DNA of 64,000 nt from Candidatus Aenigmatarchaeota archaeon (GTDB lineage: Archaea > Aenigmatarchaeota > Aenigmatarchaeia > GW2011-AR5). This document shows positions 1,483-62,701 of the stretch, one piece after another. The DNA lies in the NCBI GenBank assembly GCA_016193585.1, contig JACPRW010000001.1:59171-123170 (forward strand), in the 5' to 3' direction. The notes under the pieces are model-generated. The model was not told the origin of the DNA. It worked only from the letters and a program-made list of their open reading frames with translations, and made no database searches. Position 1 is the stretch's first letter; each line of letters opens with the position of its first letter. Made by a program: the position numbers and the translations under genes.

Positions 1483-1579
1483 TTATAGCAATACAAGGAA
1501 ATAAACACGATATTACATTCTTGTTTGCTCTATGTGAAGCAAATGTATAATATCGGTATTATTTATTTGCTTCACTATA
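1483..1579. repeat. TATAG-terminated palindromic hairpin elements (F6-type TATAGCAATACAAGGAA... plus F1-type GTGAAGCAAAT-loop-ATTTGCTTCAC)
   Basis: It is the reverse complement of 62520-62580 (ttatagcaatacaaggaaataaaca.gata...cttgtttgct.ta). The inner hairpin is gtgaagcaaat/atttgcttcac. Confidence 0.7.
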
Positions 1580-11327: not shown

Positions 11328-11424
11328 TATAGTTCTACAAGGAAAGATTTTAGATATTATTTCCTTGTGAACTATAGGTGAACCCAGTCATAACATATCC
11401 TGATTATTTACTGGGTTCCCTATA
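11328..11424. repeat. two adjacent palindromic hairpin elements (F6-variant TATAGTTCTACAAGGAAA...TTTCCTTGTGAACTATA, and F1-variant GGTGAACCCAGT-loop-ACTGGGTTCCC)
   Basis: These are inverted repeats with 20-24 nt loops. The loop is the reverse complement of the F1 loop at 14200-14225. Confidence 0.7.
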
Positions 11425-11784
11425 ACGCTTATGGTGAAACCGCTGCCGATAACCATCCCACCATGCTATCTGAGGTCCCGCAGGAAGCTGCTCACGCTGA
11501 GGCGGCGCGTGCCCCTGCACTTCAGCAAGCGCCTCGCGCATGAGGGGCACGGTATGCTTCATGTACGCATCTGCATCCATTTCAGTGCCGCCGCTCCCCC
11601 AGCCATGCGGCGCAAGCCATAACGGCGGTATACGCCCGCCTGCTATAATCTCGTTATAATGCGGGCCAAGTATAGCCTCCTTTTGGTATCTTACCGAGTC
11701 GTACTGCACGCCGTCGCTCGTCCATAATGGAAGCTGAGGCAACCCAGAACGGTAATCGCTCATAGTGATTGTATTCATGAACAT
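11404..11784 (-). CDS. hypothetical protein (3' end and stop lie inside a hairpin element)
   Basis: 126-aa ORF with no recognisable motif. It may be spurious. Confidence 0.3.
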   Translation of the reverse strand: MFMNTITMSDYRSGLPQLPLWTSDGVQYDSVRYQKEAILGPHYNEIIAGGRIPPLWLAPHGWGSGGTEMDADAYMKHTVPLMREALAEVQGHAPPQREQLPAGPQIAWWDGYRQRFHHKRYREPSK

Positions 11785-11959: not shown

Positions 11960-12663
11960 ATGCCCTACCGTAATAACAATTACCGGGACAACAGGCTCGT
12001 TGACAGGATTGATGCTGCAGTGCTGCGCCTTCATGAAAACATTGCCCGGTACTGGCAGAATACAACCTACCGGAGCAAGGACGTTCTCGCAAAGGGCCTG
12101 AATGCGACGTCTCTCGCATGCTGCACGGTCAATATCGGCTCCATACCGCTCACGAAGAATTACGAGGATCTCATTTTTTCAATACCGCTGGGAGCAGCCC
12201 AGGCGCGCAGGCTTGTCAGCCGCGGTCGGCAGAAAACGACGTTAGAGGCTGATGCCGAAAGAATCAGAAGAGACGTATATGATGAGCTGTACGATACAAA
12301 AATACCAAGGCTTGTCGTATTGACAGGCGGGCTTTACGCATTGGGGGGGGGGGGGGGGGGGGAATTTCATATGTCGTCGACGGTATGATCAACGGCAAGC
12401 CGGATGCCATTGCAATCGGGGCAGGGGATTTCATACCCCTTGGCATCGGGATTCTCTCTGCGATGTCTGCAGGGTATATAGATCGCGTGGATATCGGCGA
12501 TCCGCCAAAACGTCCGGAAAGAAAAAGCATCAGGGAGTGGCTACAAGAGTATGCTAGGAATGCGCTTCCTTCTCTTCCCTGTTTACCAAATCCCTTTCCC
12601 AAGCCGTCTTTCGGGACGAACGCGTCTTTGCTGACCGAGGAACTGTATCGAATGTATAGATAA
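11960..12663 (+). pseudogene. hypothetical gene split by a G20 homopolymer (ORFs 11960-12388 and 12385-12663 join with +1 G)
   Basis: Both halves look protein-like (…RLVVLTGGLYALGGGGGG / …VDGMINGKPDAIAIGAGDFIPLGIG…). The frame change coincides exactly with the poly-G run. Confidence 0.4.
12343..12362. repeat. G20 homopolymer tract
   Basis: 20 consecutive G read directly from the sequence. Confidence 0.95.
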
Positions 12664-12826
12664 CTGCGTAGTTTATGTGACGTATTATTAGCAGTTATCT
12701 ATATGCAAACTGCGTTGTATGGTGAATTGCACTGGTTATGTCCTGATATTATTTGCAATTCACCTATAGAAAATTGCGCGTTAATACGACATAACAGAAA
12801 TTTTTATTTACTGGTTTCACTATAAA
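12655..12826. repeat. cluster of four TATAG-terminated hairpin elements (F2, F3-fragment, F5, F4-partial, F1-half)
   Basis: tatagataactgcgtagtttatgtgacgtattattagcagttatctata, then tgcaaactgcgttgta, then ggtgaattgca...tgcaattcacc, then aaaattgcgcgttaatacgacataa. The element supplies the stop codon (TAA 12661-12663) of the upstream ORF. Confidence 0.8.
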
Positions 12827-12849
12827 AGCTTTGCAGTTCTATCCTAACC

Positions 12850-14121
12850 ATGAAGGCGGTAGCTGTCGTCGGCATGCAGTTCGGTGACGAGGCGAAGGGC
12901 AAGATTGTCGACGTGCTCTCGAACAGTAGGGACGTTGTTGCAGGCATTCGTTTCGCCGGCGGCAACAACGCAGGACACACGGTCGTGTTCGGCGGCAAGG
13001 AATACAAGCTGCATCACATTCCTTCTTCCATCTTCCACGGCAAGCTTTCAGTCATCGGGCATGGCACCGTGGTCAATCCTGGCGTACTGCTCGATGAAAT
13101 CAGGCAGCTCGGTGCGCTTGCTGAAAACCTGCGCATCAGCCCCAATGTCCATGTCATCATGCCGTACCATATACATGAGGATGTGCTGCTCGAAGCAAAA
13201 AAAAGCAGCAAGGTCGGTACGACCGGTAGGGGCATCGGCCCGTGCTATGCCGACAAGGCGAACAGAATCGGCATCAGGATAAGGGAGCTGTTCGACGGGG
13301 AAAGCCTGAACAGGAAGCTTGAATTCCTGATTCCGCTCAAAAACAGCACGCTGCAGCACGCATACGGCTGGGACGGTGCGCTGGACAAGGACGCAATTGC
13401 GATGGAGTATGCAGCATACGGAAAATTCCTGAAAACGTATGCTTTTGATGGCACAGTACCCGAAGGAACCGTCCTGCTTGAAGGGGCACAGGGCGCACTG
13501 CTGGACATTGACATGGGAACGTACCCGTTCGTGACGTCGTCGCACCCGACTATCGGCGGAGCGCTCGCCGGTTCAGGCATGCCGAAAGCAGACGCGGTCG
13601 TGGGCGTCATGAAAGCATACACAACAAGGGTGGGCGAGGGGCCGTTCCCGACCGAGCTGACAAACGAGGTTGGCGCGAAGCTGCGGCAGGAAGGCAGGGA
13701 ATTCGGCACGACTACCGGCAGGCCGCGGCGAGTAGGATGGCTTGACATACCCATGCTGAAGTACGCGGCCCGCGTCAACGGCGTTACAGCACTTGCACTC
13801 ACCAAGCTCGATGTTCTGGCAGGCATGCCTGAAATCAAAATCGCCGTTGTCTACGATCGTGCCGGCATACAAATTAATGCACTATCCCATGCGACTGACG
13901 TGGCAGATGCAACGCCGGTTTATGAAATAGTGAAGGGATGGAAAGCGCTGTCTCAGGAACAGTGGAATGCACTTGCCCAGGAAGGCTTTGCAGCGCTCCC
14001 TGAAGAAGCGCAGGAATATGTCAGGCTTATCGAGCGCAGCCTTGCCGTGCCTGTTGCGATTGTTTCAGTTGGTGCAGACAGGAATGCAACGATATTACGG
14101 AAGCCTCTTCACGAATTATAG
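12850..14121 (+). CDS. purA: Adenylosuccinate synthetase
   Basis: MKAVAVVGMQFGDEAKGKIVD...GTTGRGIGP...GTTTGRPRR. The stop TAG (14119-14121) lies inside the TATAG terminus of the downstream element. Confidence 0.9.
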   Translation: MKAVAVVGMQFGDEAKGKIVDVLSNSRDVVAGIRFAGGNNAGHTVVFGGKEYKLHHIPSSIFHGKLSVIGHGTVVNPGVLLDEIRQLGALAENLRISPNVHVIMPYHIHEDVLLEAKKSSKVGTTGRGIGPCYADKANRIGIRIRELFDGESLNRKLEFLIPLKNSTLQHAYGWDGALDKDAIAMEYAAYGKFLKTYAFDGTVPEGTVLLEGAQGALLDIDMGTYPFVTSSHPTIGGALAGSGMPKADAVVGVMKAYTTRVGEGPFPTELTNEVGAKLRQEGREFGTTTGRPRRVGWLDIPMLKYAARVNGVTALALTKLDVLAGMPEIKIAVVYDRAGIQINALSHATDVADATPVYEIVKGWKALSQEQWNALAQEGFAALPEEAQEYVRLIERSLAVPVAIVSVGADRNATILRKPLHEL

Positions 14122-14360
14122 ATAATTGCGCAGCTTATGTCGTATTAACGCGCAATTTTCTATAGGTGAATTGCAAATAATATCAGGACATATAGTGAAC
14201 CAAGTAAATAATCAGGTATTATATCTTGGTTCACTTACACCCAAAAAGCAAAGCTTTTTGGTGCACCGGAAAACTTTGTTTTCCGCGTGTAGCGGACAAC
14301 AAAAGTATTATGTCGGTATTCTTTTGTTGGTCCACTATAACCAGTGCAATTCACCATATA
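14117..14360. repeat. hairpin-element cluster: F4, then F5 split by a nested 150-bp element
   Basis: F5 appears intact at 41585-41632 and 55822-55870. Here it is interrupted after ...caggaca by an insert with TIRs TATAGTGAACCAAG / CTTGGTCCACTATA. Confidence 0.8.
14191..14340. mobile_element. about 150-bp MITE-like element nested in an F5 hairpin (TIR TATAGTGRACCAA, TA/ATA target duplication, three internal hairpins)
   Basis: A second copy lies at 57646-57793 in opposite orientation (roughly 95% identity by eye). The F5 halves on either side reconstitute the intact element. Confidence 0.7.
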
Positions 14361-14397
14361 ATCGTACCTTTAAAAACCTGACCCATCTATAACGTAT

Positions 14398-15405
14398 ATG
14401 GCAGCAAAGGATTACAAAATCGCCACACTGGGAAGCCACACGGCGCTGCAGATTCTCAAGGGCGCCAGGGACGAGGGCTTCGAAACGATCGCCGTATGCA
14501 CCCCCCAAATGGCACCGGTATACAAAAATTTCCGCGCTGCGGACAAATTTATCGAGATTTCCTCGGTGAAGGACTTCTTCTCCGTCGAGGAGCAGCTCAT
14601 CAGGGAGAACGCCATCCTTATTCCACATGCCTCGCTCATCACGTACCTTAATCTTGACGCCATAGAACGCATGCGCGTCATGTACTACGGGAACAAAAAA
14701 ATATTGCGGTGGGAGTCGGACCGGCTGCTCGAGCGGAAGCTGCTGCAGAACGCGGGGCTGAAGCTGCCGCGCATCTTCGACTCGCCTGCCGGCATCGACC
14801 GGCCGGTCATCGTCAAGTTCTACGGCGCCAAGGGCGGCAAAGGCTATTTCGTCGTGAAGAATGAAAAGGAATTCGAGGAGAAAATGAAGCAGGAAACAAC
14901 CGGCGAGCAGTATATCATACAGGAGTACATCGTCGGCGTGCCGCTCTATGCCCATTACTTCTACTCGCGGATGAGCAGCGAACTGGAAATCATGGGCTTC
15001 GACAAGCGCTACGAATCGAACGTCGACTCCATCGGCAGGATAGCAGCGAAGGACCAGATGAACCTTAACCTTGAAACGTCGTACAACATCGTGGGCAACA
15101 TTCCGGTGGTGGTCAGGGAGTCGCTGCTGCCGCAGATTTTCTCCATGGGAACTGAGACCGTGAAAGCAGCGGAGGACGCCGGCGGCCTGTTCGGCCCTTT
15201 CTGCCTCGAGATGATCATCACGCCGCAGCTCGATTTCTACGTGTTCGAGCTTTCTGCGCGCATCGTCGCCGGCACCAATCCCTATATCGCCCATTCTCCG
15301 TACACCTACGTGCGCTACAACGAGCCGATGAGCACCGGCAGGCGCATCGCACGGGAAATCAGGGAAGCGATAGCAGCAGACAGGCTGGACGAGATTCTTG
15401 GGTAG
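14398..15405 (+). CDS. purP: 5-formaminoimidazole-4-carboxamide ribonucleotide synthetase (PurP family, ATP-grasp)
   Basis: MAAKDYKIATLGSHTALQILKGARDEGFETIAVC... is the archaeal PurP signature. Confidence 0.8.
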   Translation: MAAKDYKIATLGSHTALQILKGARDEGFETIAVCTPQMAPVYKNFRAADKFIEISSVKDFFSVEEQLIRENAILIPHASLITYLNLDAIERMRVMYYGNKKILRWESDRLLERKLLQNAGLKLPRIFDSPAGIDRPVIVKFYGAKGGKGYFVVKNEKEFEEKMKQETTGEQYIIQEYIVGVPLYAHYFYSRMSSELEIMGFDKRYESNVDSIGRIAAKDQMNLNLETSYNIVGNIPVVVRESLLPQIFSMGTETVKAAEDAGGLFGPFCLEMIITPQLDFYVFELSARIVAGTNPYIAHSPYTYVRYNEPMSTGRRIAREIREAIAADRLDEILG

Positions 15406-15409
15406 TGCT

Positions 15410-16510
15410 ATGATGAACAAAGCCGCTGGGGACGCCATCGTCAGCAAGTACAGCAGGAAGGCAATAACCATTGCAACGATCGGTTCCCACTCGGCGCTCG
15501 ACGTGTGCCGCGGCGCAAAAGATGAAGGGTTGCAGACCGTTGTCGTCTGCCAGAAAGGCAGGGAACAAACATACACGAAGCACTATAAGGTCGTAGTCGA
15601 CCACCCGCTGCTTGTCGACAAGTTCAGCGATGTCGCCAGCCCAACTGTGGTGGCGCAGCTGCAAAAGCTGAACGCGGTTTTTATCCCGAACCGCTCATTC
15701 GAAGTGTACGTGGGCGACTACAGCAGGATCGAAGCGATGGAAATCCCCTTCTTCGGCTCGCGCAGGCTCCTGCGTTTCGAGGAGCGGAACGAAAGCCCGA
15801 ACCAGTACACGCTCATGGAAAAGGCGGGCATCAGATTCCCGAAGCGTTTCGCATCGTCTGATGTTATAGATCGCCTCGTTATCGTCAAAGCAGCAGAGAG
15901 CGAGCGGAATTTCCAGCGCGAGTTCTTCTTTGCTTCATCGCCTGTAGATTTTGAGCGGAAAGCAAGGCAACTTATCGATAGGGGACTTGTTCATGGCAAG
16001 CAGCTCGACAGCGCTGTTATTGAAGAATTTGTTATCGGCGCACACATCAATTTTAATTTCTTCTACTCACCGCTCAGGAGGCGGCTGGAACTCATGGGCA
16101 CTGATTTCAGGCGGCAGACCAACCTTGATGGCTTGCTCAGGATTCCGGCGAAAGAACAGTCAGAATTTACCGTCAATCCAAGCCTCAAAGAAGCAGGCCA
16201 TGTCGCCGCGACCGTGCTCGAGAGCATGCTCGAGAAGGCATTCGGGCTGGGCGAAGCGTTTGTCGATGCGTGCCAACCCTATGGCGGCATCGTCGGCCCG
16301 TTTGCACTGCAGTCAATCATTACGCCCGGCCCGCCGAAAGAAGACATCGTCGTCTATGACGTCAGCCTGCGTATCCCCGGCTCGCCGGGCACGATGTTCA
16401 CACCCTATTCCTACTATCTACACGGCAAGCCGCTGAGCGTCGGCCGACGCATCGCCATGGAAGTGCGGGAAGCCGCGGAAACCGGGCAGCTGGAGAAGGT
16501 GGTGACGTAG
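15410..16510 (+). CDS. purP: PurP-family ATP-grasp paralogue
   Basis: KAITIATIGSHSALDVCRGAKDEGLQTVVVC... is the same family. The start is ATG 15410, or the track's GTG at 15398. Confidence 0.75.
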   Translation: MMNKAAGDAIVSKYSRKAITIATIGSHSALDVCRGAKDEGLQTVVVCQKGREQTYTKHYKVVVDHPLLVDKFSDVASPTVVAQLQKLNAVFIPNRSFEVYVGDYSRIEAMEIPFFGSRRLLRFEERNESPNQYTLMEKAGIRFPKRFASSDVIDRLVIVKAAESERNFQREFFFASSPVDFERKARQLIDRGLVHGKQLDSAVIEEFVIGAHINFNFFYSPLRRRLELMGTDFRRQTNLDGLLRIPAKEQSEFTVNPSLKEAGHVAATVLESMLEKAFGLGEAFVDACQPYGGIVGPFALQSIITPGPPKEDIVVYDVSLRIPGSPGTMFTPYSYYLHGKPLSVGRRIAMEVREAAETGQLEKVVT

Positions 16511-16618
16511 GGATTCTTTGATACATCCCTAGTAGACATAACATCTCGCAGCAGCACACAAGACGAACAAAAGTAGGCATAAGCGCTAGTTAGGCGAAAT
16601 TTATGGAGGAAGTAGAAA

Positions 16619-17353
16619 ATGGATATAAATCCTGAGAAATTCCATAGATCTATAAGTAAAGAGTTGAAGGTAATTCAGGATCGAGTTAGGAATCTTATGG
16701 GTAGTGCACATTGGGGAGAAGAAGGGAGGTATAAGGAAGCCGTATTAAGGAGCATTATAAGAAGATTCTTGCCCAAAAATGTAAGTATAGGCACAGGATT
16801 TATTTTAAAAAAAGAGGGCGACGAGATTAAAATATCAAATCAAATAGATATTATCATCTATGACAATACGTATCCAGTGCTGTTTGCAGAAGGCGATTTT
16901 TTAATAACTACACCAGCAAATGTAAAAGGAATAATAGAGGTCAAGACCAAGTTAAATTCTTCAGATGTAATGGATGTGGTTTCTAAAGCTACAAATAATG
17001 GGAAAGTAGTTGATAATGAGATATTTAGTGGAGTATTTGTTTATAACGAAGGAAATATAGTTAACAACAGCAACATAAGTGATAACCTTAAAAGTGCTTT
17101 AAAAGAGAGTAAAGGCGTTGTGAATCATATTTGTTTAGGGGAAGACATTTTCATTAAATTTTGGCCAAGGAATCCACAAAGTAACTTCCCGAATAAATAC
17201 AGTATCTACAGAATAAAAGACCTCTCCTTTTCTTATTTTATTTCTAACCTTGCTGAACAAACATCTGAGAGTAAGCTAAAAGAAAGATGGTGGTTTTTAT
17301 ATCCCATCGAAAAAGGCAAGGAGGAATATAAAATTGAGGATATTGATGTTTAA
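16619..17353 (+). CDS. PD-(D/E)xK nuclease-fold protein, possible defense/abortive-infection component
   Basis: 244 aa with SNQIDIIIYD ... GIIEVKTKL (D...ExK). The N-terminal region is helical. The gene is AT-rich with a GGAGG SD. Confidence 0.5.
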   Translation: MDINPEKFHRSISKELKVIQDRVRNLMGSAHWGEEGRYKEAVLRSIIRRFLPKNVSIGTGFILKKEGDEIKISNQIDIIIYDNTYPVLFAEGDFLITTPANVKGIIEVKTKLNSSDVMDVVSKATNNGKVVDNEIFSGVFVYNEGNIVNNSNISDNLKSALKESKGVVNHICLGEDIFIKFWPRNPQSNFPNKYSIYRIKDLSFSYFISNLAEQTSESKLKERWWFLYPIEKGKEEYKIEDIDV

Positions 17354-17559
17354 ACTTCGCCTAACATAGCATAAAAGGTTCGTGCCTCACAGCGCTCACC
17401 CAAATTTTTGCTTCGCAAAAACTTCTTTTATGCTGGAAACGTTCAACGAAATTCCGAACATTATTTCAGGCCGCCGACACGATAGCTCTTCGCTTCCAAG
17501 CCTCTGGAACGACAAGGCGAATTTATAAGGATTATCGGAAGAATTATTTATGTGATGTT

Positions 17560-18333
17560 GTGACAAGGAAGAAGGTATCCAAGAAAGATGTACATAAATT
17601 AAAAAAAGAGCCAAAATTTTCTCAAGAGATAAAAACTTCAGTAGTAATGCCTTTCAAATGTAAATTTTGTGGCAATCTTTTTGATATTGAGCACAGACTT
17701 CCAGAAAACCATACTTGTGAAGGTCTTTCTCAATGGAAAGAAAAACATTTGAAAGAATTTCATGAAGGTAAAAGTTCTATCGCATATGAAAACACGCTGG
17801 AACCAAAACATGAAGATTCAGGCTATAAAGATTCTATGAGAAACGCCCTTCGATGTGACTCAAAACAATTTTTCAAAGGAATACCAGAAAAATTCAATAA
17901 ACAGGCAATAAGATTGAATATTCATCGACTAATTCAAAAAAATATGAATGATATCGGCATATGGCTCATAGGCTTATTTATTATCTTTACAGCTTTCAAT
18001 CAGATACTAAAATACTCTATACTTGAAAGTATTTCATGGATTTTTGTTTACGTTGCAGAAATTATTTTTATATATAAGTTGATTAAGCGTGTTGACAAAA
18101 TAGAAGTAAATTCAGATTTGAGTATTTGGGGTTTAAAAATATTATCATTCATCTTTATCCTTATTGGAGTGTATATATTCTTATTCGGGTCTTTGGCATT
18201 AGCCACCGTCTATAGCCTTTATGTTCTCGGGCTTCTTGGTATAATAGCGCTAGGATTCTTTTCAATTGGCGCTTTTCTGATTTTCAAATTCAAACGAAGA
18301 AGTGGGAGCATTGTATGGGTCGGAAGAGCGTAG
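17560..18333 (+). CDS. Zn-finger (AN1-like CxxC...HxxxxxHxC) protein with two C-terminal TM helices
   Basis: [20 protein letters not shown] motif and a K-rich N-terminus, followed by two long hydrophobic helices. The start is uncertain (alternative Met at 17647). Confidence 0.45.
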
Positions 18334-18426
18334 AAGAAATTATTGTAATGAGAAAGTCGTTATAAAACTTATTTTGGCTAGCCTTAAATACTTATATAAA
18401 ATCATATATACATAAACTTATATAGA

Positions 18427-18699
18427 GTGGTAACCATGCAAAAAAGAGAAATTATACACTATCCTAACCTTAGCACAATGCTTGAAGTAGAGAAGGTCCT
18501 GAAAGAAGCAGACGGACCTATATCCAAGGAAGAACTGAAAAGGAGGCTTCCGACAAAGATTATGCACCAGACACTTAACCTTATTTTGGCATACATGGAA
18601 AACAGGGGGCTGATTTTATCAGGCCCGAAAGGCATACTCTGGACATACAATCCCAGCCCGAAACTGCAGAAAGCCATAGAAAAAGGCATTGAGATATGA
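18427..18699 (+). CDS. small winged-helix-like protein (putative antitoxin/regulator)
   Basis: 90 aa. Its stop overlaps the next gene's start (ATGA). Confidence 0.4.
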   Translation: MVTMQKREIIHYPNLSTMLEVEKVLKEADGPISKEELKRRLPTKIMHQTLNLILAYMENRGLILSGPKGILWTYNPSPKLQKAIEKGIEI

Positions 18700-19067
18700 G
18701 TAGAAATATCAACGTCATACTTAGCGAAGAAGCTACCAAGCAATATGAAGAACTGAACAGGATTGTTGGTGATGAAATAAAGAAAGGCATAACGAATTCT
18801 ATTCATCAGCAACTACTCAAATCCATAAAACAGAAATCTGAGCTTCTGAAAATCAATCCTCAGGCTGGAATACACATATCGAAAAAGCTTATACCGAAAA
18901 TCTATATAGACAAATACGATGTCGATAATCTGTGGAAAATAGATTTGTCTGGTTACTGGAGAATGACGTATACGTTGCGGACGACAGAAATAGAAATAAC
19001 GAACTTCGTTCTAGATATAGTAGATCACGTAACGTACGACAAAATACTTGGATACAAGAAAAAATAA
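18696..19067 (+). CDS. RelE/ParE-like toxin
   Basis: N-terminal ...SEEATKQYEEL...IKKGI...LKINP and C-terminal GYWRMTYTL...ITNFVLDIVDHVTY, matching the RelE/ParE fold pattern. Confidence 0.5.
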   Translation: MSRNINVILSEEATKQYEELNRIVGDEIKKGITNSIHQQLLKSIKQKSELLKINPQAGIHISKKLIPKIYIDKYDVDNLWKIDLSGYWRMTYTLRTTEIEITNFVLDIVDHVTYDKILGYKKK

Positions 19068-19466
19068 ACATCGCCTTGTAGCCAAAACCATTCTGAACCT
19101 GAAGAGCCACTTTCAGGCCGTCGGCGGTCCTGTTTTCAGTATTGTGCTGAATGCCTTGCATTCGCACATCTTCGGAGAAATATAATTTCTCCGAGATTCA
19201 GAAAATCTTCGATTTTCGAGAAATTTGCACGAACCTATGGTTCGGTGCAGTATTGTCGGAACTCTTCGCTTTCCTGCGGAAAGCTCGCTTTTCTTTCAGA
19301 AAAGTCGCTGAACAGCGATTAGAAGATCCGCTTCTGCGAAGCTCCATCCAAATGGCGATTATATAAAAAGAAATAATCGCCACTTCTTCTAATCGCATAC
19401 GTTATGCTCAATTCGTGGGCTCGCCGGTTAAAAAGTTTATTAAGCCAACTTAACTATTGATTAATT

Positions 19467-22159
19467 ATGGTAGACATTTTATATATTTTTTCAGGTTCAC
19501 CGTTGCTCTACATTCTCATATTAACATTAATTGCATTAGGTACATTCCTAATCTGGAAGTCATTCAAAACAAAATATAAATTCATTTTTTTAGGGGTTTT
19601 AGGCTTGGGAATAATCACTGTTCTCCTATTTTCTTTTATTAATACTCAACAAGGATCACCTGAACCGGATGCATCTGGAAAATCAGGCTACACATTGACT
19701 CTAAAAGAAGTGTGGGGTTCGAAGAGATGGATAAAGACCTTCGAAAGGCCCGGTAGTGATTATCCATTTGCAGTTCTGCAAACCTCTGACGGCGGGTATG
19801 TGGTTAGCGGGAGAACAAATAACGGCACGAAAGATTGCTATGGCGGGACCCCTATGATTTTAACATTCCTTTTCAAGACAGACGCGGATGGAAACAAAGT
19901 CTGGGAAAAGTTTCATTACGCTGGCAGAATAGTTTCAATCCAGCAGACTTCTGACGGAGGGCTGGTGGCTACAGGATCAATAGCTGCCACTGACACAGGA
20001 ATTGATGTTTACCTTGTAAAAACAGACGCGAAAGGCAGTATTACTTGGGAGAAGAGCTATGGTGAGAGTGATCCCGAGGGAGGATTTTCCGTCCAGCAGA
20101 CTTCTGACGGAGGGTATATCATTGCGGGGGGGGGACAGGTAGACGCTTGGGAAATCAAGGGATTTACTTGCTTAAAGTTGACAGCAACGGAAACAAATTG
20201 TGGAGCAGGATATTCGCCAAAGATTTAAAGACGGATGAGGAACCGCAACTGGTCCAGCAGGCTGCTGATGGAGGCTATATAGTTGTTGGGTGGAGGAAAT
20301 CGCAAGGAATGCCCAGCATAAAAGAAGACCCTAATGACCCATACATTGATGACGACGTCTATTTGCTAAGGACTGATTCATTAGGGAATAAGATTTGGGA
20401 GAAGACGATTGACGCATTTGGGAAGCGTGCAGACGAGAGGCTTGTGCATGATGCCTTGCAAACACCTGACGGAGGTTATGTAATTGTTGGAGGCTCAGCA
20501 CCCATTGTAAGATCAAATGGCGCACTACAAAGTTCGAGCCCCTATGTCTATTTGCTCAAGATTGATTCTGACGGGAACAAAACATGGACGAAGGATTATG
20601 GTATGGGAATTGGTCATTTAGTTCAGCTAACGTCCGACGGCGGTTACATAATCACTGGAGAGGTAATAGACAACGTGGGTCCAAATTACCTTGTGAAGAT
20701 AGGAACGGACAGTGACGGGAATAAGTTGTGGGAGAAACCCATTGAAATACTTAATACATATCAGGGCAAGGATTACCCAAATGTGGTTAAGCCAACCTTT
20801 GACAGCGGCTACATAGTCCTTGGAACCAGAGAATATGGCGACCTTATGGGATATGCCGGCATGCTGGAATCTGATACCCTGCTCATGAAGATAGAAGAAA
20901 CAGACACACTAAGATTGCCGGATTATGAGCGGGTACCGCCGCGTGAAACGAAGTTGCCCACCCAAGTTGAGCTACTGACTCCGACGGGAAAAGGATGGAT
21001 GAAGACAGTTGGAGGGAGTTTAGGCTCAAAGGCGCGAGCCGTGCAGAAGACATCTGACGGAGGCTATATAGTTGCAGGTTGGACTCATCGTAGTGTGACA
21101 GTACCTTATGGATTGAACGACACGACAGTCCTGACACAAAGGGAAGCATATATTGTTAAGACAGATGGAAATGGAAATAAAGTTTGGGAGAAGAGCTTTG
21201 GAGGAGATGGGTTTGAAGACGGGTTTTCAGTACAGCAAACCCCTGACAGCGGGTATATGGTTCTTGGAATCAAGGAGGCATATGCCTATCTGATAAAAAC
21301 AGATGCTTATGGAAACACGCAGTGGAATAAGACACTTGGTGAAAATTATGGTGATGTGGGTTTTTCACTCCTGCAGGCTTCTGACAGTGGATACATAATT
21401 GTTGGGATTACACAAGGCCATGGTGCGACCCCGTGTAACGCAAAAGAACCTGAGCGAGGCGCATCAGCTGATGTCTATATCATAAAGACTGATGCTGACG
21501 GAAACAAATTGTGGGAAAAAGTAATTGGCGGAACGCATATGGATATAGGATATTTTGTGCAGAAGACTTCTGACGGCAATTATATAATAACTGGAATGAC
21601 AGCTTCATTTAGTGAAAAAGGAGTCGAGGATGTTTACCTGCTTAAAATAGACAGCCATGGCAACAAATTGTGGGAAAAGGCAATTGGGGGGGACAAAAGC
21701 GAGATGGGCTATTCAGTACAACAAACTACTGACGGCGGTTATGTAATTGTTGGGCAAACAGTTTGGTCAATCAAAGGAGCAGATATGGGTGAAGGGGGTT
21801 ATGCTAGCCAGTCAGATATCTATTTAATAAAAACAGATACATACGGGAACAAAATCTGGGAAAAGACGTTTGGGGGGAGTTCGATGGATAGGGGATTTTC
21901 AGTGCAGCAGACTTCCGACGGCGGGTACATCATTACCGGAGACACAGACGGGCATCTTTACCTCTTCAAAACAGATGCAGACGGGAATAAAGTCTGGGAA
22001 AAGGCATTCAAAAGAGACGAGACCAAGCCATTCACGGGACGGTCTGTCAAGCAGACTACTGACGGCGGGTACATGGTTGTTGCAAATACGTTTTACACGT
22101 CAACACCTGCCTATCAGCCTATAATACTCATAAAGACAGACGCAAACGGGGATGTGTGA
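19467..22159 (+). pseudogene. secreted multi-repeat beta-propeller-like surface protein, frameshifted at a G9 tract
   Basis: It has an N-terminal TM/signal segment and 15 or more roughly 55-aa repeats (QQTSDGGYII.G....D.YL.KTD..GNK.WEK..GG). ORF 19467-20228 (frame 0) and ORF 20147-22159 (frame 2) share the same repeat and join if the G9 run at 20126-20134 gains one G. Confidence 0.6.
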
Positions 22160-23087
22160 AATTGTGAGAAAAACAATTTTTATAATCCCTTTGCTGATTT
22201 TGATTGTTTTTGTCAGTGGCTGCGTCGGGCAGGGACCTGGCATGAATCCGACTGTAATAACCGGCAAGACAACCATTGAGAAAAGCGGTTTGTACGTCTT
22301 GAACAGCGACATCTCCTGCACCGCCGAAGGTGAAATGGACGTATGCATCGATATACAGAGGCATGACGCTGTGCTTGATTGCCAGGGTCACAGCATAACT
22401 CTGGCGAATCAACAGGCCCGCCGCGGCCCTGCCAGTACCGGGATATACATAGCTGGCAGCGGCGTGGAGGACGTGACTGCCAGGAATACCGTCAGGAATT
22501 GCAGGATTGAGAACTTTGCATTCGGCATATTCCTCAAGGCCAGTTCCAACAACTTCATCAACAACACCATCAGCAACAATGGCATCGGAATCTACTACGA
22601 CGACTTTTCCTCGTACAACATTTTCATAAACAACACGGTGAGTAATAACAACAATAGAGGCATCTACCTGTTCATGCGCTCGTCCAACAACAATTTTACA
22701 GGCAACATTGTAAGAAACAATAGCATATACGGCATCATTATCACCTGCGCGGCACACCACAACACCTTTTCCAACAACGTGGTTGAAGGCAACGGATACG
22801 GCAGCACGAGTGACGAGAACGGCGGAATCTACATCCTCAACTCATACGCCAACGTCTTTTCAGGCAACGGGATATGCAACAACTCGAAAACCATTAAATG
22901 CAAGTTCGATGCCACAATGGAAGGCATAAGTGATATCTGCAGGCCGCAAGTCCTTCCAGACACCATTCCAATTGACAGGGATGCACAGGAAGCCGGAAAC
23001 CTCATTGACGGCGGGGGAAACACCTGTGGTCCGAGCTCCATGAGCTGCGACGGCACCACCATAAGCTGCATCAGGGGTTGCCCATGA
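22152..23087 (+). CDS. right-handed parallel beta-helix (NosD/pectin-lyase-like) lipoprotein
   Basis: Lipobox FVSGC, then N/G-rich approximately 22-aa repeats (NNTISNNGIGIYY, NNTVSNNNNRGIYL, ...). Confidence 0.65.
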   Translation: MCEIVRKTIFIIPLLILIVFVSGCVGQGPGMNPTVITGKTTIEKSGLYVLNSDISCTAEGEMDVCIDIQRHDAVLDCQGHSITLANQQARRGPASTGIYIAGSGVEDVTARNTVRNCRIENFAFGIFLKASSNNFINNTISNNGIGIYYDDFSSYNIFINNTVSNNNNRGIYLFMRSSNNNFTGNIVRNNSIYGIIITCAAHHNTFSNNVVEGNGYGSTSDENGGIYILNSYANVFSGNGICNNSKTIKCKFDATMEGISDICRPQVLPDTIPIDRDAQEAGNLIDGGGNTCGPSSMSCDGTTISCIRGCP

Positions 23088-24604
23088 AAAATCTGGCTAT
23101 TTTCTTTTTATTGTTTATTTCAATAGCACTTATCAGCGGCTGTGTCCAACAACCGTCTAAACTAAAGGATTCAGAAACACCGGGCTATGCATCATCAGGC
23201 ACAACCGGCAAATATCCGGAACAAAATCCAGATTGTGCAAACTCAGGTGTGAAAACCTGGGCAAAAGTGTTTGGCGGGCCTGGATTTGATTATGCAACTT
23301 CACTCCAGCAAACTCCTGATGGAGGGTATGTGGTTACTGGACTCCTTAATTCCGGACCGACGGACTCGACCGGCGAAAAGCAGTATGATGTCCTTTTGTT
23401 CAAGGTTGATATGGACGGGAACAAAGTATGGGAGAAGTCGTACGGGGGGAATGAGAACGATTTCGCATTCTCACTGCAACAGACTGCTGACGGTGGATAC
23501 ATTATCGGAGGAGAAACGCGTTCCTTTGAAGATAAAGGTGCCAATGCCTATCTTATAAAAACCGATGCCGATGGCAATCTGCAATGGAACAGGACATTCG
23601 ATATGTGCGGAGGAAACGAGTCTGACAGGGTACTCTCAGTGAGGCAGACTTCTGATGGTGGGTACATAAGTGCAGGCGTTACATTTTCCTGCAGCCAAAA
23701 GCTCTGGGGGGAACAGCTCCCATGGGACGACTCCTTCCTTCTTAAAACAGATGCAAACGGTAATATGTTGTGGGAGCGCATTTTTGGATGGAAGGAGAAC
23801 ATAGACCAGGCGCTTTCGGTCCAGCAGACCTCTGACGGAGGATTCGTGGCCATCGGATACATACACTATTATGACCCAAACGGACCTATCTATATCTATG
23901 GACGAGACATTTACTTGGTAAAAACTGATAAAGATGGAAACATACTGTGGAACAAAACATTCGGAATCGGTAACAAGACATCTCTTGGAAACGGATTGAA
24001 TAATGCGGAAGTGTTACAGCAGACTTCCGATGGAGGATATGTGGTTGCCGGACAAGGAGCCGACAGACGACTATATCTGCTGAAAGCTGATGCGAACGGC
24101 AATAAAGTCTGGGAAAAATCAATTGGAGATCTGAATTTGCATAGCAGGGGATACTCTGTAAAGGAAACAACTGACGGCGGCTACTTCATTATAGGGGCAC
24201 GATGCATTCCAGACTATGAACCGAGAACCATAATTGTCGACAGTAATGTTATTCTTGAGCATCCATGTGAGTTCTACTTCCTGAAAACTGATGCGAACGG
24301 AAACATAGTATCGGAGATGTCCGGCGGGCGCACTTTCAATGGCGTGCTATGGCCAGGCCAGCAGACTCCTGACGGGGGATACATAATTGTTGAAACTGTA
24401 TTCCCAAGAGTGAGCGCGACCCAGTATGCAAAGACGACTGACATCCTCATGATGAAGCTGAATGAGAATGGAGTTGTATGTAACCTTACTTATGGCCAAC
24501 CCTGCACACTGGTGCCTGAGCCAGAGTGGATAAACAACCCCGCATGCAAAAATCTTATTTATGATGAAGAGTACATTCACAATCCCTATCTCCCAGAGCG
24601 ATAA
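23078..24604 (+). CDS. beta-propeller repeat lipoprotein (same repeat family as 19467-22159)
   Basis: Lipobox LISGC, then repeated QQTSDGGY...YLLK.DANGNKVWEK units. Confidence 0.65.
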   Translation: MPMKNLAIFFLLFISIALISGCVQQPSKLKDSETPGYASSGTTGKYPEQNPDCANSGVKTWAKVFGGPGFDYATSLQQTPDGGYVVTGLLNSGPTDSTGEKQYDVLLFKVDMDGNKVWEKSYGGNENDFAFSLQQTADGGYIIGGETRSFEDKGANAYLIKTDADGNLQWNRTFDMCGGNESDRVLSVRQTSDGGYISAGVTFSCSQKLWGEQLPWDDSFLLKTDANGNMLWERIFGWKENIDQALSVQQTSDGGFVAIGYIHYYDPNGPIYIYGRDIYLVKTDKDGNILWNKTFGIGNKTSLGNGLNNAEVLQQTSDGGYVVAGQGADRRLYLLKADANGNKVWEKSIGDLNLHSRGYSVKETTDGGYFIIGARCIPDYEPRTIIVDSNVILEHPCEFYFLKTDANGNIVSEMSGGRTFNGVLWPGQQTPDGGYIIVETVFPRVSATQYAKTTDILMMKLNENGVVCNLTYGQPCTLVPEPEWINNPACKNLIYDEEYIHNPYLPER

Positions 24605-24668
24605 GACTCCGGGTAAATTCCATAATGGTCGATTAAAATGAGAAACGCGAAGGAAATGAGTAAAGGTA

Positions 24669-25235
24669 TTGTTAGCTTTGATTGTCTTTGTCAGCGGCTG
24701 CGTCCAAGAGGAAAAACAGGTTGAAAAGCAAGAAGAAAAACCAAAAATAGAGGAACGCTATTTTCCTGGCTGGGCACCAGCTCCGCTTGGATTGGCAATT
24801 ACCCCAGATGGAAAAACAGCCTACATTCCCTTCGGACTTGACGATGCGTTACTGGTAGTGAACTTATCAACATTTGCTGTCATCGATTCGATAGATGTAT
24901 CTGAAGCCGGCAACATGCTTCTTTTAACTGCTACAGTCTTGGGTCCAGACGGGAAAAAGCTTTACGTTTCCAACTATGGAACCAAGAACGTGATGGTGGT
25001 AGATACAGAAAACAAACGTGTTGAGAAGGTGCTTCCGTTAAATCCACTCCATGCAGCCGCCATCGCAATATCACGAGATGGAAGCAAAGCCTACGCGCCC
25101 TCAAAAGATGGGGGACTGTACGTAATAAATACTTTAGACAATTCGTATAACCGCATTTTTATACCCGGAGTTATTTTTGGCCCGGTAGTGCCTTCTTCCA
25201 GCAATCCAGAGTTAGTGTATTGGCCGACTTCATGA
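24669..25235 (+). CDS. YVTN-family beta-propeller lipoprotein
   Basis: TTG start with lipobox IVFVSGC, then ITPDGKTAYIP.../GPDGKKLYVSNYGTKNVMVVD.../SRDGSKAYAP YVTN-type blades. Confidence 0.55.
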   Translation: MLALIVFVSGCVQEEKQVEKQEEKPKIEERYFPGWAPAPLGLAITPDGKTAYIPFGLDDALLVVNLSTFAVIDSIDVSEAGNMLLLTATVLGPDGKKLYVSNYGTKNVMVVDTENKRVEKVLPLNPLHAAAIAISRDGSKAYAPSKDGGLYVINTLDNSYNRIFIPGVIFGPVVPSSSNPELVYWPTS

Positions 25236-25259
25236 AGTCCCGATACGTTGTATGCATTG

Positions 25260-34346: not shown

Positions 34347-34445
34347 TATAGATAACTGCGTAGTTTATGTGACGTATTATTAGCAGTTATCTATATGCAA
34401 ACTGCGTTGTAGTATGTAACCTAAGTAACGCAGTTTACTATATAG
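34347..34445. repeat. hairpin elements F2 + F3 (tatagataactgcg...gcagttatctata; tgcaaactgcgttgta...taacgcagtttacta)
   Basis: F2 is identical to the element at 12657-12705. It lies at the junction of the conserved ftsY-pfdA block. Confidence 0.8.
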
Positions 34446-39143: not shown

Positions 39144-39195
39144 ATATAGCTCTACAAGGAAACAAACTTAAGTGTTATGAAGGGCAAACAATGCG

Positions 39196-39678: not shown

Positions 39679-39778
39679 TATATACTAAACTGCGAAACTT
39701 ATATGACGCAGATTCGCAGTTTGTATACAGATAACTGCTCATAATATGTCATGCAAATTATGCAGTTATCTATATCTT
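39679..39778. repeat. hairpin elements F3-variant + F2-variant (tatactaaactgcgaa...ttcgcagtttgtata ; cagataactgctcataatatgtcatgcaaattatgcagttatctata)
   Basis: It is identical to 62388-62478. It overlaps the 3' end and stop of rpl39e. Confidence 0.8.
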
Positions 39779-39934
39779 GTTCCGTCCCCTTCTCCAGTGC
39801 TTCGCGGTGACGCGCACGCGCCTTGTCCGCGCCCGCTTGAGCGAGTGCTTCTTGATGTCCGCCCAGCGCGGAGCGCTTCGCCTGCGAGCGGCGATGAGCT
39901 TGAGCTTCTTGCCGTATGCTTTCCGTGATGCCAT
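39770..39934 (-). CDS. rpl39e: 50S ribosomal protein L39e
   Basis: The 54-aa MASRKAYGKKLKLIAARRRSAPRWADIKKHSLKRARTRRVRVTAKHWRRGRNKI matches L39e. The last codons and the stop lie inside the hairpin element. Confidence 0.8.
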   Translation of the reverse strand: MASRKAYGKKLKLIAARRRSAPRWADIKKHSLKRARTRRVRVTAKHWRRGRNKI

Positions 39935-40115
39935 ATCAGAACCCATCATGTTACGCTTTAATTATCGGTTCCGATACCTCCGGTATTATCAGAACCCATC
40001 CATTTTATTCATAAACACTTTGTGTTTATCAGCTTCTCCAAAGCTGGAATGTAGCCGGTTCCCGAACCTCCGCTACTCAGATTTCCCGCTTGGTGCCGTA
40101 TTACTTTTTGCTAAG

Positions 40116-40424: not shown

Positions 40425-40430
40425 CCATTT

Positions 40431-40527
40431 TATAGTAAACTGCGTTACTTAGGTTACATACTACAACGCAGTTTGCATATAAATAACTGCTAATAATACG
40501 TCACATAAACTACGCAGTTATTCATAT
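40431..40527. repeat. hairpin elements F3 + F2 (reverse orientation)
   Basis: tatagtaaactgcgttacttaggttacatactacaacgcagtttgcatata + aataactgctaataatacgtcacataaactacgcagttattcata. Confidence 0.8.
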
Positions 40528-40711
40528 TTTCACATCTTTCAGATGTGCCAGCCTCTCCGAGACTGCACTATAGTCAGTTCCTATTACCTCCGACAGGAAC
40601 CACACGCTTCACTATGCTGGACACACCGACGGTGCGTCAGCTCGTTTTCAGTCCTGAGACCCCCTGTTACAGGAAGGCGGCGAAACCTTGTAATCAATCC
40701 CAGGAATGATT

Positions 40712-41125: not shown

Positions 41126-41196
41126 GTTGCGTCACATCATCCGGTATGGAAAATGCACCAGAGCACGCTGCACCACGGCTGCAGGCACATGGTGCG

Positions 41197-41537: not shown

Positions 41538-41634
41538 TATAGATAATTGCGCAGCTTATGTCGTATTAACGCGCAATTTTCTATAGGTGAATTGCAAATA
41601 ATATCAGGACATAACCAGTGCAATTCACCATATA
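41538..41634. repeat. hairpin elements F4 + F5 (intact F5)
   Basis: tatagataattgcgcagcttatgtcgtattaacgcgcaattttctata + ggtgaattgcaaataatatcaggacataaccagtgcaattcaccata. Confidence 0.8.
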
Positions 41635-55743: not shown

Positions 55744-55910
55744 TATAGTAAACTGCGTTACTTAGGTTACATGATATAGATAATTGCGCAGCTTATGTCG
55801 TATTAACGCGCAATTTTCTATAGGTGAATTGCAAATAATATCAGGACATAACCAGTGCAATTCACCATACAACGCAGTTTGCAGTCACATAAACTACGCA
55901 GTTATCTATA
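55744..55910. repeat. hairpin-element cluster F3(half)-F4-F5-F3(half)-F2(half)
   Basis: tatagtaaactgcgttacttaggttacatgata | tagataattgcgcagcttatgtcgtattaacgcgcaattttctata | ggtgaattgca...tgcaattcacca | acaacgcagtttgcag | cacataaactacgcagttatctata. Confidence 0.8.
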
Positions 55911-55954: not shown

Positions 55955-56300
55955 GGGCACGTGAACATAGCTTTCATAGCAGGTTCACGTAATAACCAAA
56001 CTTTTCACCTGAACCTGCTATACGGTATGTTCTGCATAAAATGTTCACTAACCAACAGAACATACTATCAGTATGCACATGAACAGCTCGGAGTTTGCGC
56101 CATGAGGCATGAACAGTGCCCGCCGATAATAAGCGCCGGGTTCGTGTATCAGGTACCTGTACGTGACAGAAAAGACGTACCTCTTCTCGAACTGTGGATA
56201 TATGATAGTAAAGAACATTGATTTTGGAACATTTTATGATGTTCTTTCCCTATAGCAGATTGCAGCTAAAAGTTCCATTATTATTACAATCTGCTATAAG
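55955..56300. repeat. second family of palindromic elements (GTGAACA/TGTTCAC-type and TATAGCAGATTG...CAATCTGCTATA)
   Basis: cgtgaacatagctttcatagcaggttcacg; gtatgttctgcataaaatgttcactaaccaacagaacatac; aagaacattgattttggaacattttatgatgttctt; tatagcagattgcagctaaaagttccattattattacaatctgctata. The last two recur at 62578-62670. Confidence 0.7.
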
Positions 56301-57599: not shown

Positions 57600-57645
57600 T
57601 AGTAGAATAATGCGTTCAAAGGCTTTATAATATAATATAGCGGAC

Positions 57646-57793
57646 CAACAAAAGAATACCGGCATATTACTTTTGTTGTCCGCTACACGCGGAAAACAAA
57701 GTTTTCCGGTGCACCAAAAAGCTTTGCTTTTTGGGTGTGTATCATATCTTGGTTCACGTACGATTATTTACTTGGTTCACTATAAATGCCAAC
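57646..57793. mobile_element. second copy of the ~150-bp MITE-like element (reverse orientation relative to 14191-14340)
   Basis: tatagcggaccaacaaaag...ccggaaaacaaagttttccgg...caccaaaaagctttgctttttgggtg...cttggttcac...ttggttcactata. It has three internal perfect hairpins and TATAG termini. Confidence 0.7.
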
Positions 57794-57934
57794 CTCTCCC
57801 GGAAGCTCGACATAACAGTTGGCGGTGCAGTTTTGATACGTGATCAGTAATTTATAGCTCTACAAGGAAACAAACAGGATATATTCCCCTGTGAGCATGT
57901 CCCTCATGGCAGCGGCATTCATGCGGTGTAAAGA

Positions 57935-58029
57935 TATAGTTAACCAAGTAAAGAATCCGGATATTATAACTTGGTTCACTATATGTGACCAACTTGTGTA
58001 ATACCTGAATATTAAGTTGGTCAGCTATA
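57935..58029. repeat. two adjacent small hairpin elements (tatagttaaccaag...cttggttcactata ; tatatgtgaccaactt...aagttggtcagctata)
   Basis: Perfect 9-10 bp inverted repeats with 20-nt loops and TATA termini. Confidence 0.75.
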
Positions 58030-62336: not shown

Positions 62337-62670
62337 TATATAGTGAAACAAGAAAAGATTCCGGATATTATTTTCTGGTTTCACATATACTAAACTGCGA
62401 AACTTATATGACGCAGATTCGCAGTTTGTATACAGATAACTGCTCATAATATGTCATGCAAATTATGCAGTTATCTATACATGGTAAAGCAAAGCATTAC
62501 CTGTACAGATGAAACGTTGTTTCACCATGTATAGCAAACAAGGAAGTTATCCTGTTTATTTCCTTGTATTGCTATAATAGTAAAGGACATTGATTCTGGA
62601 ACATTTTACAATGTTCTTTCCCTATAGCAGATTGCAGCTAAAAGTTCCATTATTATTACAATCTGCTATA
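62337..62670. repeat. large composite cluster of about 7 different hairpin elements (F1, F3v, F2v, TATACATGGT-type, F6, AAGGACAT-type, TATAGCAGATTG-type)
   Basis: 62388-62478 is identical to 39688-39778. 62520-62580 is the reverse complement of 1483-1530. 62578-62670 is near-identical to 56205-56297. Confidence 0.8.
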
Positions 62671-62701
62671 AGACTTATAAAAGCACAATACTAGTTATTT
62701 C

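Follow-up and report, generated by a model that had tools for sequence, protein, structure and literature searches.

TATAG-ended, paired-hairpin elements with signs of insertion at TA in an Aenigmatarchaeota genome and its relatives

What are the small palindromes that crowd the intergenic DNA around purA in a Candidatus Aenigmatarchaeota genome, and do they move? The window, by which we mean the whole 64,000-nt stretch analyzed here (contig JACPRW010000001.1, positions 59,171 to 123,170), is archaeal, encoding L31e, S19e, PurP, PCNA, exosome subunits, eIF6, prefoldin, and an intron-containing tRNA-Tyr; the GC content of the genome is 53%, and the closest homologues of PurA and eIF6 beyond the source metagenome-assembled genome (MAG) are 52% and 68% identical, respectively. 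A first-pass annotation had marked positions 12655-14360 as one feature, belonging to a superfamily of TATAG-ended hairpins that resemble MITEs, the miniature transposable elements with inverted repeats. This interval is in fact two hairpin clusters flanking purA (adenylosuccinate synthase; 12850-14121; Pfam E = 4e-146), which lies between two palindrome-packed AT-rich intergenic segments and is not part of the feature.

The window was scanned for hairpins having 8-32 nt loops and perfect stems of 9 bp or more, with 20 block-shuffled windows as a control. Thirty-four perfect-stem hairpins were found, compared to 1-9 (mean of approximately 5) in the shuffles, and about 25 of the 34 sit in AT-rich intergenic clusters with TATA(G)/CTATA feet. 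Self-BLAST revealed copies that are 95-100% identical across 60-103 nt and are combined in varying order, and the folds of eight representative elements consist of separate, local hairpins (z-scores of -4 to -9); the superfamily is therefore real. Elements are present in 11 intergenic regions (1484-1579, 11328-11424, 12655-12824, 14117-14358, 34347-34442, 39680-39774, 40431-40526, 41538-41632, 55744-56298, 57636-58029, and 62339-62672), to which a profile search of the window added nothing but a 23-nt solo fragment (39145-39167), together about the 12 or more clusters first counted. By the sum of the mapped parts, some 16 elements in 64 kb amount to approximately 2 kb, or about 3% of the window. 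They occur in every gene context (downstream, upstream, convergent, and divergent) and in both orientations.

The motifs named for families F1 to F6 were located as described, i.e., the F1 arms GTGAACCAAG/CTTGGTTCAC at 14195/14225, the F2 arms at 12657/12691 and 34349/34383, the F3 arms in 6 plus 5 and the F5 arms in 4 plus 4 occurrences, F6 at 62530, and the F4 left arm three times (14122, 41543, and 55780) with its assigned right arm GCGCAATT at 14150, 41571, and 55808; the exact reverse complement of the F4 10-mer is absent from the window. A further proposed family, GTGAACA/TGTTCAC, forms no hairpin, as its occurrences are direct repeats or lie inside another loop. Readings of the elements as C/D-box small RNAs, CRISPR arrays, or terminators were also rejected by inspection, with no box motifs, regular spacing, or bias of orientation or position.

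The palindromes had been viewed as single hairpins shuffled freely between loci, whereas the recurring unit is a pair of hairpins of approximately 92 nt, with 90-95 nt between flanking TA dinucleotides in 18 cases from unrelated sequence families. Each element begins with 5'-TAG and finishes with CTA-3', and its two self-contained hairpins are adjacent. A long form of 143-149 nt (202 nt in one case) has the same two end hairpins with an inner module between them, a palindromic segment of about 50 nt with two 8-9 bp hairpins and 3-nt loops; because this module is also found solo at a TA junction (62480-62529, with CATG...CATG ends), the architecture is nested. Elements of 90-149 nt are too short to encode a transposase. 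Alignment of half-units, reading inward from TATAG, showed that the loops carry a conserved core and that the stems vary between families. In the largest superfamily, the order is TATAG, a 9-13 nt stem with a nearly invariant CAA, the loop AAATAAT-C(A/C/T)GG-ATAT (core of the units, AATAATCAGG), the complementary stem, and CTATA, so that the loops are not the arbitrary AT-rich spacers first assumed; both ends of an element in this superfamily fit one consensus of approximately 26 nt. Two other superfamilies (TATAGATAAYTGCG...; TATAGCAGATTG... and GGGAAAGAACAT...) have in common only the TATAG foot and the overall design.

Evidence for movement comes from elements nested within one another. The loop of the unit termed C (...GGACATAACCAG..., or GGACA-TA-ACCAG) is intact in three copies (41606-41618, 55843-55855, and, reversed, 12732-12744). 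In the fourth copy (14186-14344), it reads GGACA-TA-[TAGTG...145 nt...CACTA]-TA-ACCAG, and the flanks on either side match the intact copy at 100% identity. This filled and empty site indicates a duplication of 2 nt, or possibly 3 nt since the element ends in A. In a second nested case (55744-55883), the loop of a B unit is interrupted by a D+C element with TA on each side, and the reconstructed empty loop has the length of intact B loops, differing from them in 2 of the 4 central bases. Both cases exclude a 4-bp TATA duplication, and such nested insertions destroy the hairpin of the receiving unit. When flanks were analyzed for 29 independent insertions from the window and 11 other contigs, all fitted TA-TAG...CTA-TA, with T at -1 in 18 and A at +1 in 20, hence a symmetric T-TA-A target.

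Genes next to the elements tell a similar story of presence and absence. At the 3' site of the L31e gene, one related locus (L031) carries a pair 3 nt from the stop codon and another (L035) has none there, and the coding sequence beside the site aligns well between the two. When the cluster at the 3' end of purA and a single TA are deleted in silico, TTA-TAG becomes TTA-TAA, so the position of the stop codon is kept; elements supply the stop codon both here (TAG) and in a 54-aa gene (TAG at 39770-39772, minus strand). Logan contigs with window genes end at elements, as would be expected of multi-copy DNA. Altogether, the nesting, the TA flanks, the presence/absence difference, and the copies in other organisms support movement by insertion at TA.

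These copies were found in a metagenome collection with a degenerate pattern modeled on the long-form ends (TATAGYGRACCAASWAAAKAAT), which matched 21 loci. Real elements are present in 14 of the 21, including F1+G pairs (L019, L025, and L027), long forms (L009, L017, and L026), F1+F6 pairs (L010, L013, L018, and L021), and others. The contigs are archaeal, as judged by aCPSF1/FttA, thermosome, and exosome genes, have a GC content of 35-45%, share gene order with the window, and encode proteins 45-75% identical to those of the window; the hosts are Aenigmatarchaeota-like archaea. The elements on them are 92-96% identical in DNA to window copies, at non-orthologous sites, and such near-identity in hosts whose proteins are so diverged points to horizontal spread or very strong constraint. 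Syntenic loci identified through eIF6 homologues (14-20 kb, from MAGs, one labeled Aenigmatarchaeota) contain 0-3 elements each, being present in L031 and L035 and absent in L033, L037, and L038; the family is therefore patchy and much denser in the window genome than in the sampled relatives. The units are accordingly not unique to the window. With the F5 hairpin pattern, 185,579 species genomes yielded four isolated bacterial palindromes, about the number expected by chance, and the metagenome collection yielded no match, in searches that covered neither the source genome nor its close relatives. Four patterns searched in viral contigs gave nothing, or chance palindromes without TATAG feet, and plasmid and phage collections had no match to the element patterns. 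Rfam, at gathering thresholds, matched only tRNA-Tyr in the whole window and, at E <= 1, nothing in the region 55600-58300.

Compensatory stem changes, from which selection on the hairpin itself had been proposed, were confirmed both within the window and between organisms. Across 28 distinct stems, the arms of a hairpin pair with a mean perfect run of 9.1 bp, compared to 4.5 when arms are swapped between families; this register-free arm-swap test replaced MAFFT column-based pair counts on a 26-unit alignment, which were dropped because right arms were out of register. Formal pair counts were made on the long-form alignment, comparing the window to L009 and L026. Nine of 45 predicted pairs are changed on both sides yet still paired, and, as only two lineages are compared, the nine pairs correspond to nine events. 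Ninety-five percent of cells are paired, versus 32-44% in controls with partners slid by 1-3 columns, which produced 0-1 double changes. Between the window and L009, the two inner hairpins show no uncompensated difference; L026 contributes one C-A mismatch, with helix 3 paired in 97.7% of cells. In the short form, 4 of 30 pairs are compensated. The sole badly unpaired helix, helix 1, is due to the copy at 57636-57785, in which, relative to 14194-14216, a 21-nt segment (stem arm and part of the loop) is inverted in place at 57740-57762, destroying the F1 hairpin and turning the inverted repeat CTTGGTTCAC/GTGAACCAAG into a direct repeat, a change suggestive of template switching or of local inversion inside hairpins. 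Some old copies retain broken hairpins (the 1484 unit, 57853, and 57740-57762). Altogether, the retained pairing and the covariation between lineages indicate that the hairpins are constrained, with stems kept through compensatory changes.

The first-pass annotation also knew of no earlier description of such elements. As far as we searched the literature, we found none for the present family and its design; the kind, MITE-like or like repetitive extragenic palindromes (REPs), is already known from Correia MITEs and from REP clusters, the bacterial interspersed mosaic elements (BIMEs). By analogy, our elements are Correia-like in behavior and REP/BIME-like in organization. Correia elements of Neisseria (CREE/nemis) are TA-duplicating MITEs with TATAG ends whose mobilizing enzyme is unknown (PMC2649163, PMC5039591). 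Like the archaeal elements, they have TATAG...CTATA termini and a duplicated TA target, are non-coding, come in discrete short and long forms approximately 50 bp apart, are abundant in intergenic DNA, may give rise to promoter-like TATA sequences at their ends, and have no known mobilizer. They differ in their bacterial host, their size (104-157 bp, the shortest being 69-73 bp), and their single sequence family, and in having one pair of 26-bp terminal inverted repeats (TATAG[CT]GGATTAAC(AAAAA/ATTTAAA)(CCGGTAC/TCAGGAC)) that spans the element, whereas the archaeal elements have a local hairpin at each end.

Elements of the REP, BIME, and REPIN type, with GTAG or CGTC tags, share with ours the short stem-loops (stems of 5-13 bp and loops up to 20 nt) with a conserved foot tag, the many families per genome with complementary stem differences, the head-to-head heterodimers, the mosaic clusters, and termini that give neighboring open reading frames (ORFs) TAG stop codons (PMC3733652). 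The enzymes that act on them, as folded single strands, are RAYTs, for which there is no archaeal report (PMC6006769). Unlike the archaeal elements, with TATAG on both sides and TA at every copy, REPs have a one-ended, unpaired tag and no flanking duplication; they also go with RAYT genes and are known from bacteria only (PMC3733652, PMC6006769), and no Y1 gene was found in the sequences scanned here. Archaeal MITEs, e.g., the SM elements of Sulfolobus, are likewise non-autonomous residents of archaeal intergenic DNA; we found no description of any with TATAG feet, a two-hairpin 92-nt design, nested modules, or stem covariation, and archaeal MITE censuses list sequences without their anatomy. 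Sulfolobus SM1 (approximately 80 bp) is presumably moved by an element of the IS630 family. The small dispersed repeats of cyanobacteria, which Elhai and colleagues reportedly described in 2008, are said to be very small palindromic units inserted into one another as nested mosaics with no obvious transposase; they reportedly differ from ours in length (21-27 nt), bacterial host, and termini, with no TA duplication on record. The highest archaeal MITE densities have been reported for DPANN genomes (PMC11602168). In Anabaena variabilis, a member of a distant phylum, long palindromes with TATAG...CTATA ends (TATAGGAnTnnnATTTGATTnnTGAAA--TTTCAnnAATCAAATnnnAnTCCTATA) receive REP dimers (PMC3733652), and since they share such ends, TATAG-footed elements may reach beyond Neisseria.

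A mobilizing enzyme was sought by Pfam scans of about 60 ORFs of the window and 30 ORFs of the metagenome loci and in the precomputed annotation of the syntenic loci. In agreement with the earlier statement that the window holds no autonomous partner, none of its approximately 60 ORFs matched a transposase. No IS630/Tc1, Y1, TnpB, or other candidate adjoins any element in the window, the 21 metagenome loci, or the 5 syntenic loci; no scanned ORF has a Y1_Tnp match that would mark a RAYT (Y1 HUH) gene, typically flanked by REPs, and the examined sequences contain no DDE_3-type transposase gene with matching ends. Two candidates attracted attention. One metagenome contig (L017) has, at 1712-2668, a complete small insertion sequence (IS) about 5 kb from a hairpin element, with a DDE_Tnp_1 transposase of 307 aa (the only transposase seen), 16-bp perfect inverted repeats (GCTCTGTTGAAATCCT), and TAAAATAGC directly repeated on both sides, which looks like a 9-bp target duplication. 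The other is a 144-aa HTH_23/HTH_28/HTH_29 protein (L009 1232-1666 and L017 7770-8204), located 120 nt from a long-form element, whose domain combination recalls the DNA-binding N termini of transposases. This protein, a single occurrence, was rejected as a partner, given what appears to be its own TATA-like promoter outside the element and the lack of a homologue in the window.

Taking these data together, we put at roughly 55% the probability that the elements are non-autonomous, TA-duplicating DNA transposons, i.e., MITEs, moved by a DDE-type enzyme. TA duplication with a symmetric target is a hallmark of DDE transposases of the IS630/Tc1-mariner type, and the end TA-TAGTG presumably resembles the Tc1 end TA-CAGTG. 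According to this model, an enzyme encoded elsewhere in the genome, most likely a TA-duplicating DDE transposase of that type, would excise or copy the element, which would then be inserted at TA, with T-TA-A preferred and the TA duplicated. TA-rich targets in a 53% GC genome would be mainly stop codons, promoters, and the loops or junctions of existing elements, and new copies would for this reason accumulate beside and inside old ones as mosaic clusters. Propagation seems to be limited to copies that retain intact hairpins and TAG ends, and this would account for the compensated stems. By placing TATA-like sequences and hairpins at gene boundaries, the elements may affect gene expression. 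Several points weigh against a DDE-type mobilizer. Neither the window, nor the surroundings of any copy, nor approximately 100 kb of relatives' DNA yielded a transposase, and the DDE_Tnp_1 IS described above is excluded as a partner by its unrelated ends (GCTCTGTTGAAATCCT) and apparent 9-bp duplication. We know of no DDE-type MITE that requires local hairpins, and yet compensatory change has preserved all hairpins here, even inner ones outside the terminal repeats. Compared by eye, the ends of a single element agree at only about 60-70% once TAG and the loop core are set aside, a low figure for terminal inverted repeats of the classical kind. Among the archaeal ends, the best (TATAGTGGACCAACAAAAG) matches the Correia repeat at 16 of 19 positions, but homology beyond TATAG is not significant in composition-preserving shuffles (P = 0.26 for the maximum score and 0.19 for the mean), and Correia therefore serves as analogy, not homology. 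Finally, an element whose own end is TA, inserted site-specifically next to a TA, would leave the same sequence as a 2-nt duplication.

Because sequence alone cannot separate these last two modes, our estimate for the MITE model goes no higher, and an archaeal system of the REP/BIME kind keeps a minority share that we take seriously. Here an HUH enzyme of the tyrosine class (IS200/IS605 TnpA or a domesticated, RAYT-like relative) would recognize single-stranded hairpins, cleave at the TATAG foot, and insert the element next to TA without true duplication, the pairs being REP dimers or REPINs and the clusters BIMEs. The pattern expected of structure-specific recognition is seen, namely, a conserved foot (TATAG) and loop core with stems that vary freely but stay paired, inner hairpins included; head-to-head heterodimers 1-5 bp apart, mosaic clusters, and donated TAG stops are as in the GTAG/CGTC REPs (Di Nocera et al., PMC3733652), and IS200-type TnpA is widespread in archaea (PMC6006769). 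Yet REP tags are one-ended and unpaired while TATAG/CTATA stands at both ends here, within the palindrome; the symmetric T-TA-A bias suits a two-fold symmetric double-strand insertion; the mixed orientation of asymmetric elements within 64 kb argues, weakly, against strand-specific insertion; the scans showed no Y1 gene in the window or adjoining any copy; and, up to 2018, archaea had yielded no protein of the RAYT class (PMC6006769). That the elements represent a first archaeal REP/REPIN-like system, whose folded single-stranded hairpins are cut at the TATAG foot by a structure-specific enzyme, is a rather doubtful proposition; candidates for the enzyme would be an IS200-type Y1 transposase that has been domesticated, or some unknown protein. 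If true, the elements would persist and spread across Aenigmatarchaeota, and the conserved foot, conserved loop core, and freely covarying stems would reflect recognition of structure and not classical terminal inverted repeats.

Two further explanations seem improbable. The hairpins might be structures selected by the host, either RNA hairpins (transcript ends, stabilizers, or processing sites) or protein-binding palindromes, spread mainly by recombination. Their strong conservation and covariation between organisms and their position directly at gene ends and starts would fit, and the many junctions that clusters have in common mean that recombination or segmental copying also occurs. A host function is hard to reconcile with elements in every gene context and both orientations, their absence from the syntenic loci of three related genomes, nested insertions that destroy the receiving hairpin, the tolerance of degraded copies and of an internal inversion, and the lack of an Rfam family match; archaeal termination, moreover, does not require hairpins. 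Alternatively, arm complementarity might arise without selection, with quasi-palindromes self-correcting through template switching at replication and compensation being a mutational by-product in an ordinary MITE. Arms at close spacing favor such templated correction, and those here are just 14-24 nt apart; all 28 distinct stems are near-perfect whatever the family. We nonetheless give this idea little weight, as it leaves the conserved foot, loop core, and fixed element length unexplained, is at odds with the broken hairpins that persist in old copies, accounts for one feature only, and fits either transposition model.

The individual elements are as follows, from the left end of the window. 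At 1484..1579 (plus strand), an F6-type and then an F1-type hairpin form a pair with 92 nt between TA 1484-85 and TA 1578-79; it begins 2 nt past the purE stop codon (z = -6.3), and its first unit is 92.7% identical to L010. A similar plus-strand pair, F6-like and then F1-like (GAACCCAGT stem), lies at 11328..11424 between ORF 11404-11784 (minus strand) and purF, with 93 nt between TAs and a z-score of -7.3. Upstream of purA, in the composite cluster 12655..12824, unit A (12655-12703) is followed by unit B's left arm (12704-12719), then by a reverse C unit with a truncated D (12720-12794) and by an F1-like unit's right half (12795-12824). Its part 12704-12794 is 100% identical to the reverse complement of 55793-55883, i.e., the same nested junction is present in both, and ORF 12385-12663, which has no Pfam match, terminates within the element's TATAGATAA. 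Downstream of purA, a plus-strand D+C pair (14117..14358) carries the nested insertion in its C loop; its first three bases are the purA stop codon TAG (14119-14121), and self-BLAST found 14116-14192 and 14337-14361 to be 100% identical to 41537-41613 and 41611-41635, respectively. The inserted element is the long form E (14193..14337, plus strand), 145 nt with four hairpins inside the unit C loop, between TA 14191-92 and TA 14338-39 (z = -9.3). The intact D+C pair at 41538..41632 (plus strand, 91 nt between TAs, z = -6.5) is the reference "empty" copy for the insertion at 14191.

An A+B pair is situated at 34347..34442 on the plus strand, between the pfdA stop and the ftsY start, with 92 nt between TAs, and is 98.9% identical to the reverse complement of 40431-40521, part of the reverse A+B element at 40431..40526 (minus strand) upstream of a dsDNA-binding protein gene. 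The variant A2+B2 pair at 39680..39774 (minus strand), between the L31e start and the stop of the 54-aa gene, is 100% identical to 62385-62479 and 85% identical to A+B, and its terminal CTA (39770-72) is the TAG stop of that gene on the minus strand. The solo fragment at 39145..39167 (plus strand), an F6-like left arm TATAGCTCTACAAGGAAACAAAC, is 100% identical to 57853-57875. Within the window, A+B occurs in 2 plus and 4 minus orientations and D+C in 3 plus and 1 minus.

In the right part of the window, the composite at 55744..55910 comprises a reverse B unit, its loop split by D+C (55775-55869, TA-flanked at either end), and after it a unit A's right half. A plus-strand pair of a third superfamily (55973..56068; stems GCAGGTTCA and GTATGTTCTG; z = -6.1) has degraded flanks, with CA...TC in place of TA...TA, and the plus-strand pair at 56201..56298 (stems AAAGAACAT and TATAGCAGATTG) is 95% identical to 62573-62674; clusters thus have junctions in common, 12704-12794 with 55793-55883 and 56201-56302 with 62573-62674, including 5 nt of flank. 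The second, reverse copy of the long form E is at 57636..57785 (minus strand), with 14237-14339 being 97% identical to the reverse complement of 57636-57738, and is followed by a degraded F6-like unit (57853..57900, plus strand; profile E = 2e-4). Downstream of PCNA, the F1+G pair at 57935..58029 (plus strand; 91 nt between TAs; z = -5.9) is 94.8% identical over its full length to L019 and L027. The largest cluster, 62339..62672, contains an F1-like unit (62339-62389), A2+B2 (62385-62479), the 50-nt inner-type palindrome with CATG...CATG ends (62480-62529), one lone F6 unit (62530-62576), and one more pair of the 56201 type (62573-62672).

Several long ORFs near the elements are spurious, i.e., 39777-40493 (plus strand), 41116-41586 (plus strand), 14335-15576 (minus strand), and the 5' part of 58182-59243, being antisense to real genes or reading through hairpin elements; automatic annotation likely miscalls starts and stops in such places. 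The first of these, bracketed by two A+B-type elements, was rejected as a possible "cargo" since the real genes in 39773-40409 are on the minus strand, namely the 54-aa gene and the dsDNA-binding (PF01984) gene. Between the element at 40431-40526 and the S19e stop codon, a 185-nt non-coding segment of ordinary GC content (40527-40711) could represent an unannotated small RNA; it contains no ORF and, at gathering thresholds, matches nothing in Rfam.

Other features of the window were noted along the way. Tandem PurP paralogues (DUF1246+DUF1297, ATP-grasp) are encoded at 14398-15405 and 15398-16510 with an 8-nt overlap, and PurL (26051-28957) has a PurS domain fused at its N terminus. Within these purine-biosynthesis genes, between purP2 and purQ, is a low-GC island (16600-25250; 34-47% versus about 55% in its surroundings) with genes for a DUF6602 protein, for a zf-AN1 protein, and for large proteins of the PQQ/beta-propeller-like and NosD/beta-helix types, the large proteins having internal DNA repeats at 19868-23841; it has no hairpin element and looks horizontally acquired. 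A 236-aa protein with a strong GGDEF diguanylate-cyclase domain (53731-54441, minus strand; E = 4e-36) may be a bacterial acquisition, because to our knowledge cyclic-di-GMP enzymes of this type are unusual among archaea. The tRNA-Tyr gene (50691-50785), whose 95-nt length implies an intron, lies between a PIN-domain toxin gene (50071-50436) and a MazF/PemK toxin gene (50829-51173); PIN-domain genes also adjoin hairpin elements in L021 and L027.

The elements thus appear to form an abundant, apparently undescribed mobile family in DPANN-type archaea, whose small genomes are usually deemed streamlined, and at essential genes they occupy positions only a few bases from stop codons or in the promoter region. 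In practice, they break short-read assemblies, and the spurious ORFs and altered stop codons that they create are misread by annotation pipelines. With copies in several hosts, they could mark genetic exchange among uncultured archaea. Their design, in which each end has its own hairpin, the foot and loop are conserved, stems covary, and modules are nested, is intermediate between classical MITEs and bacterial REPs and could help settle how orphan elements such as the Correia repeats are recognized and moved.

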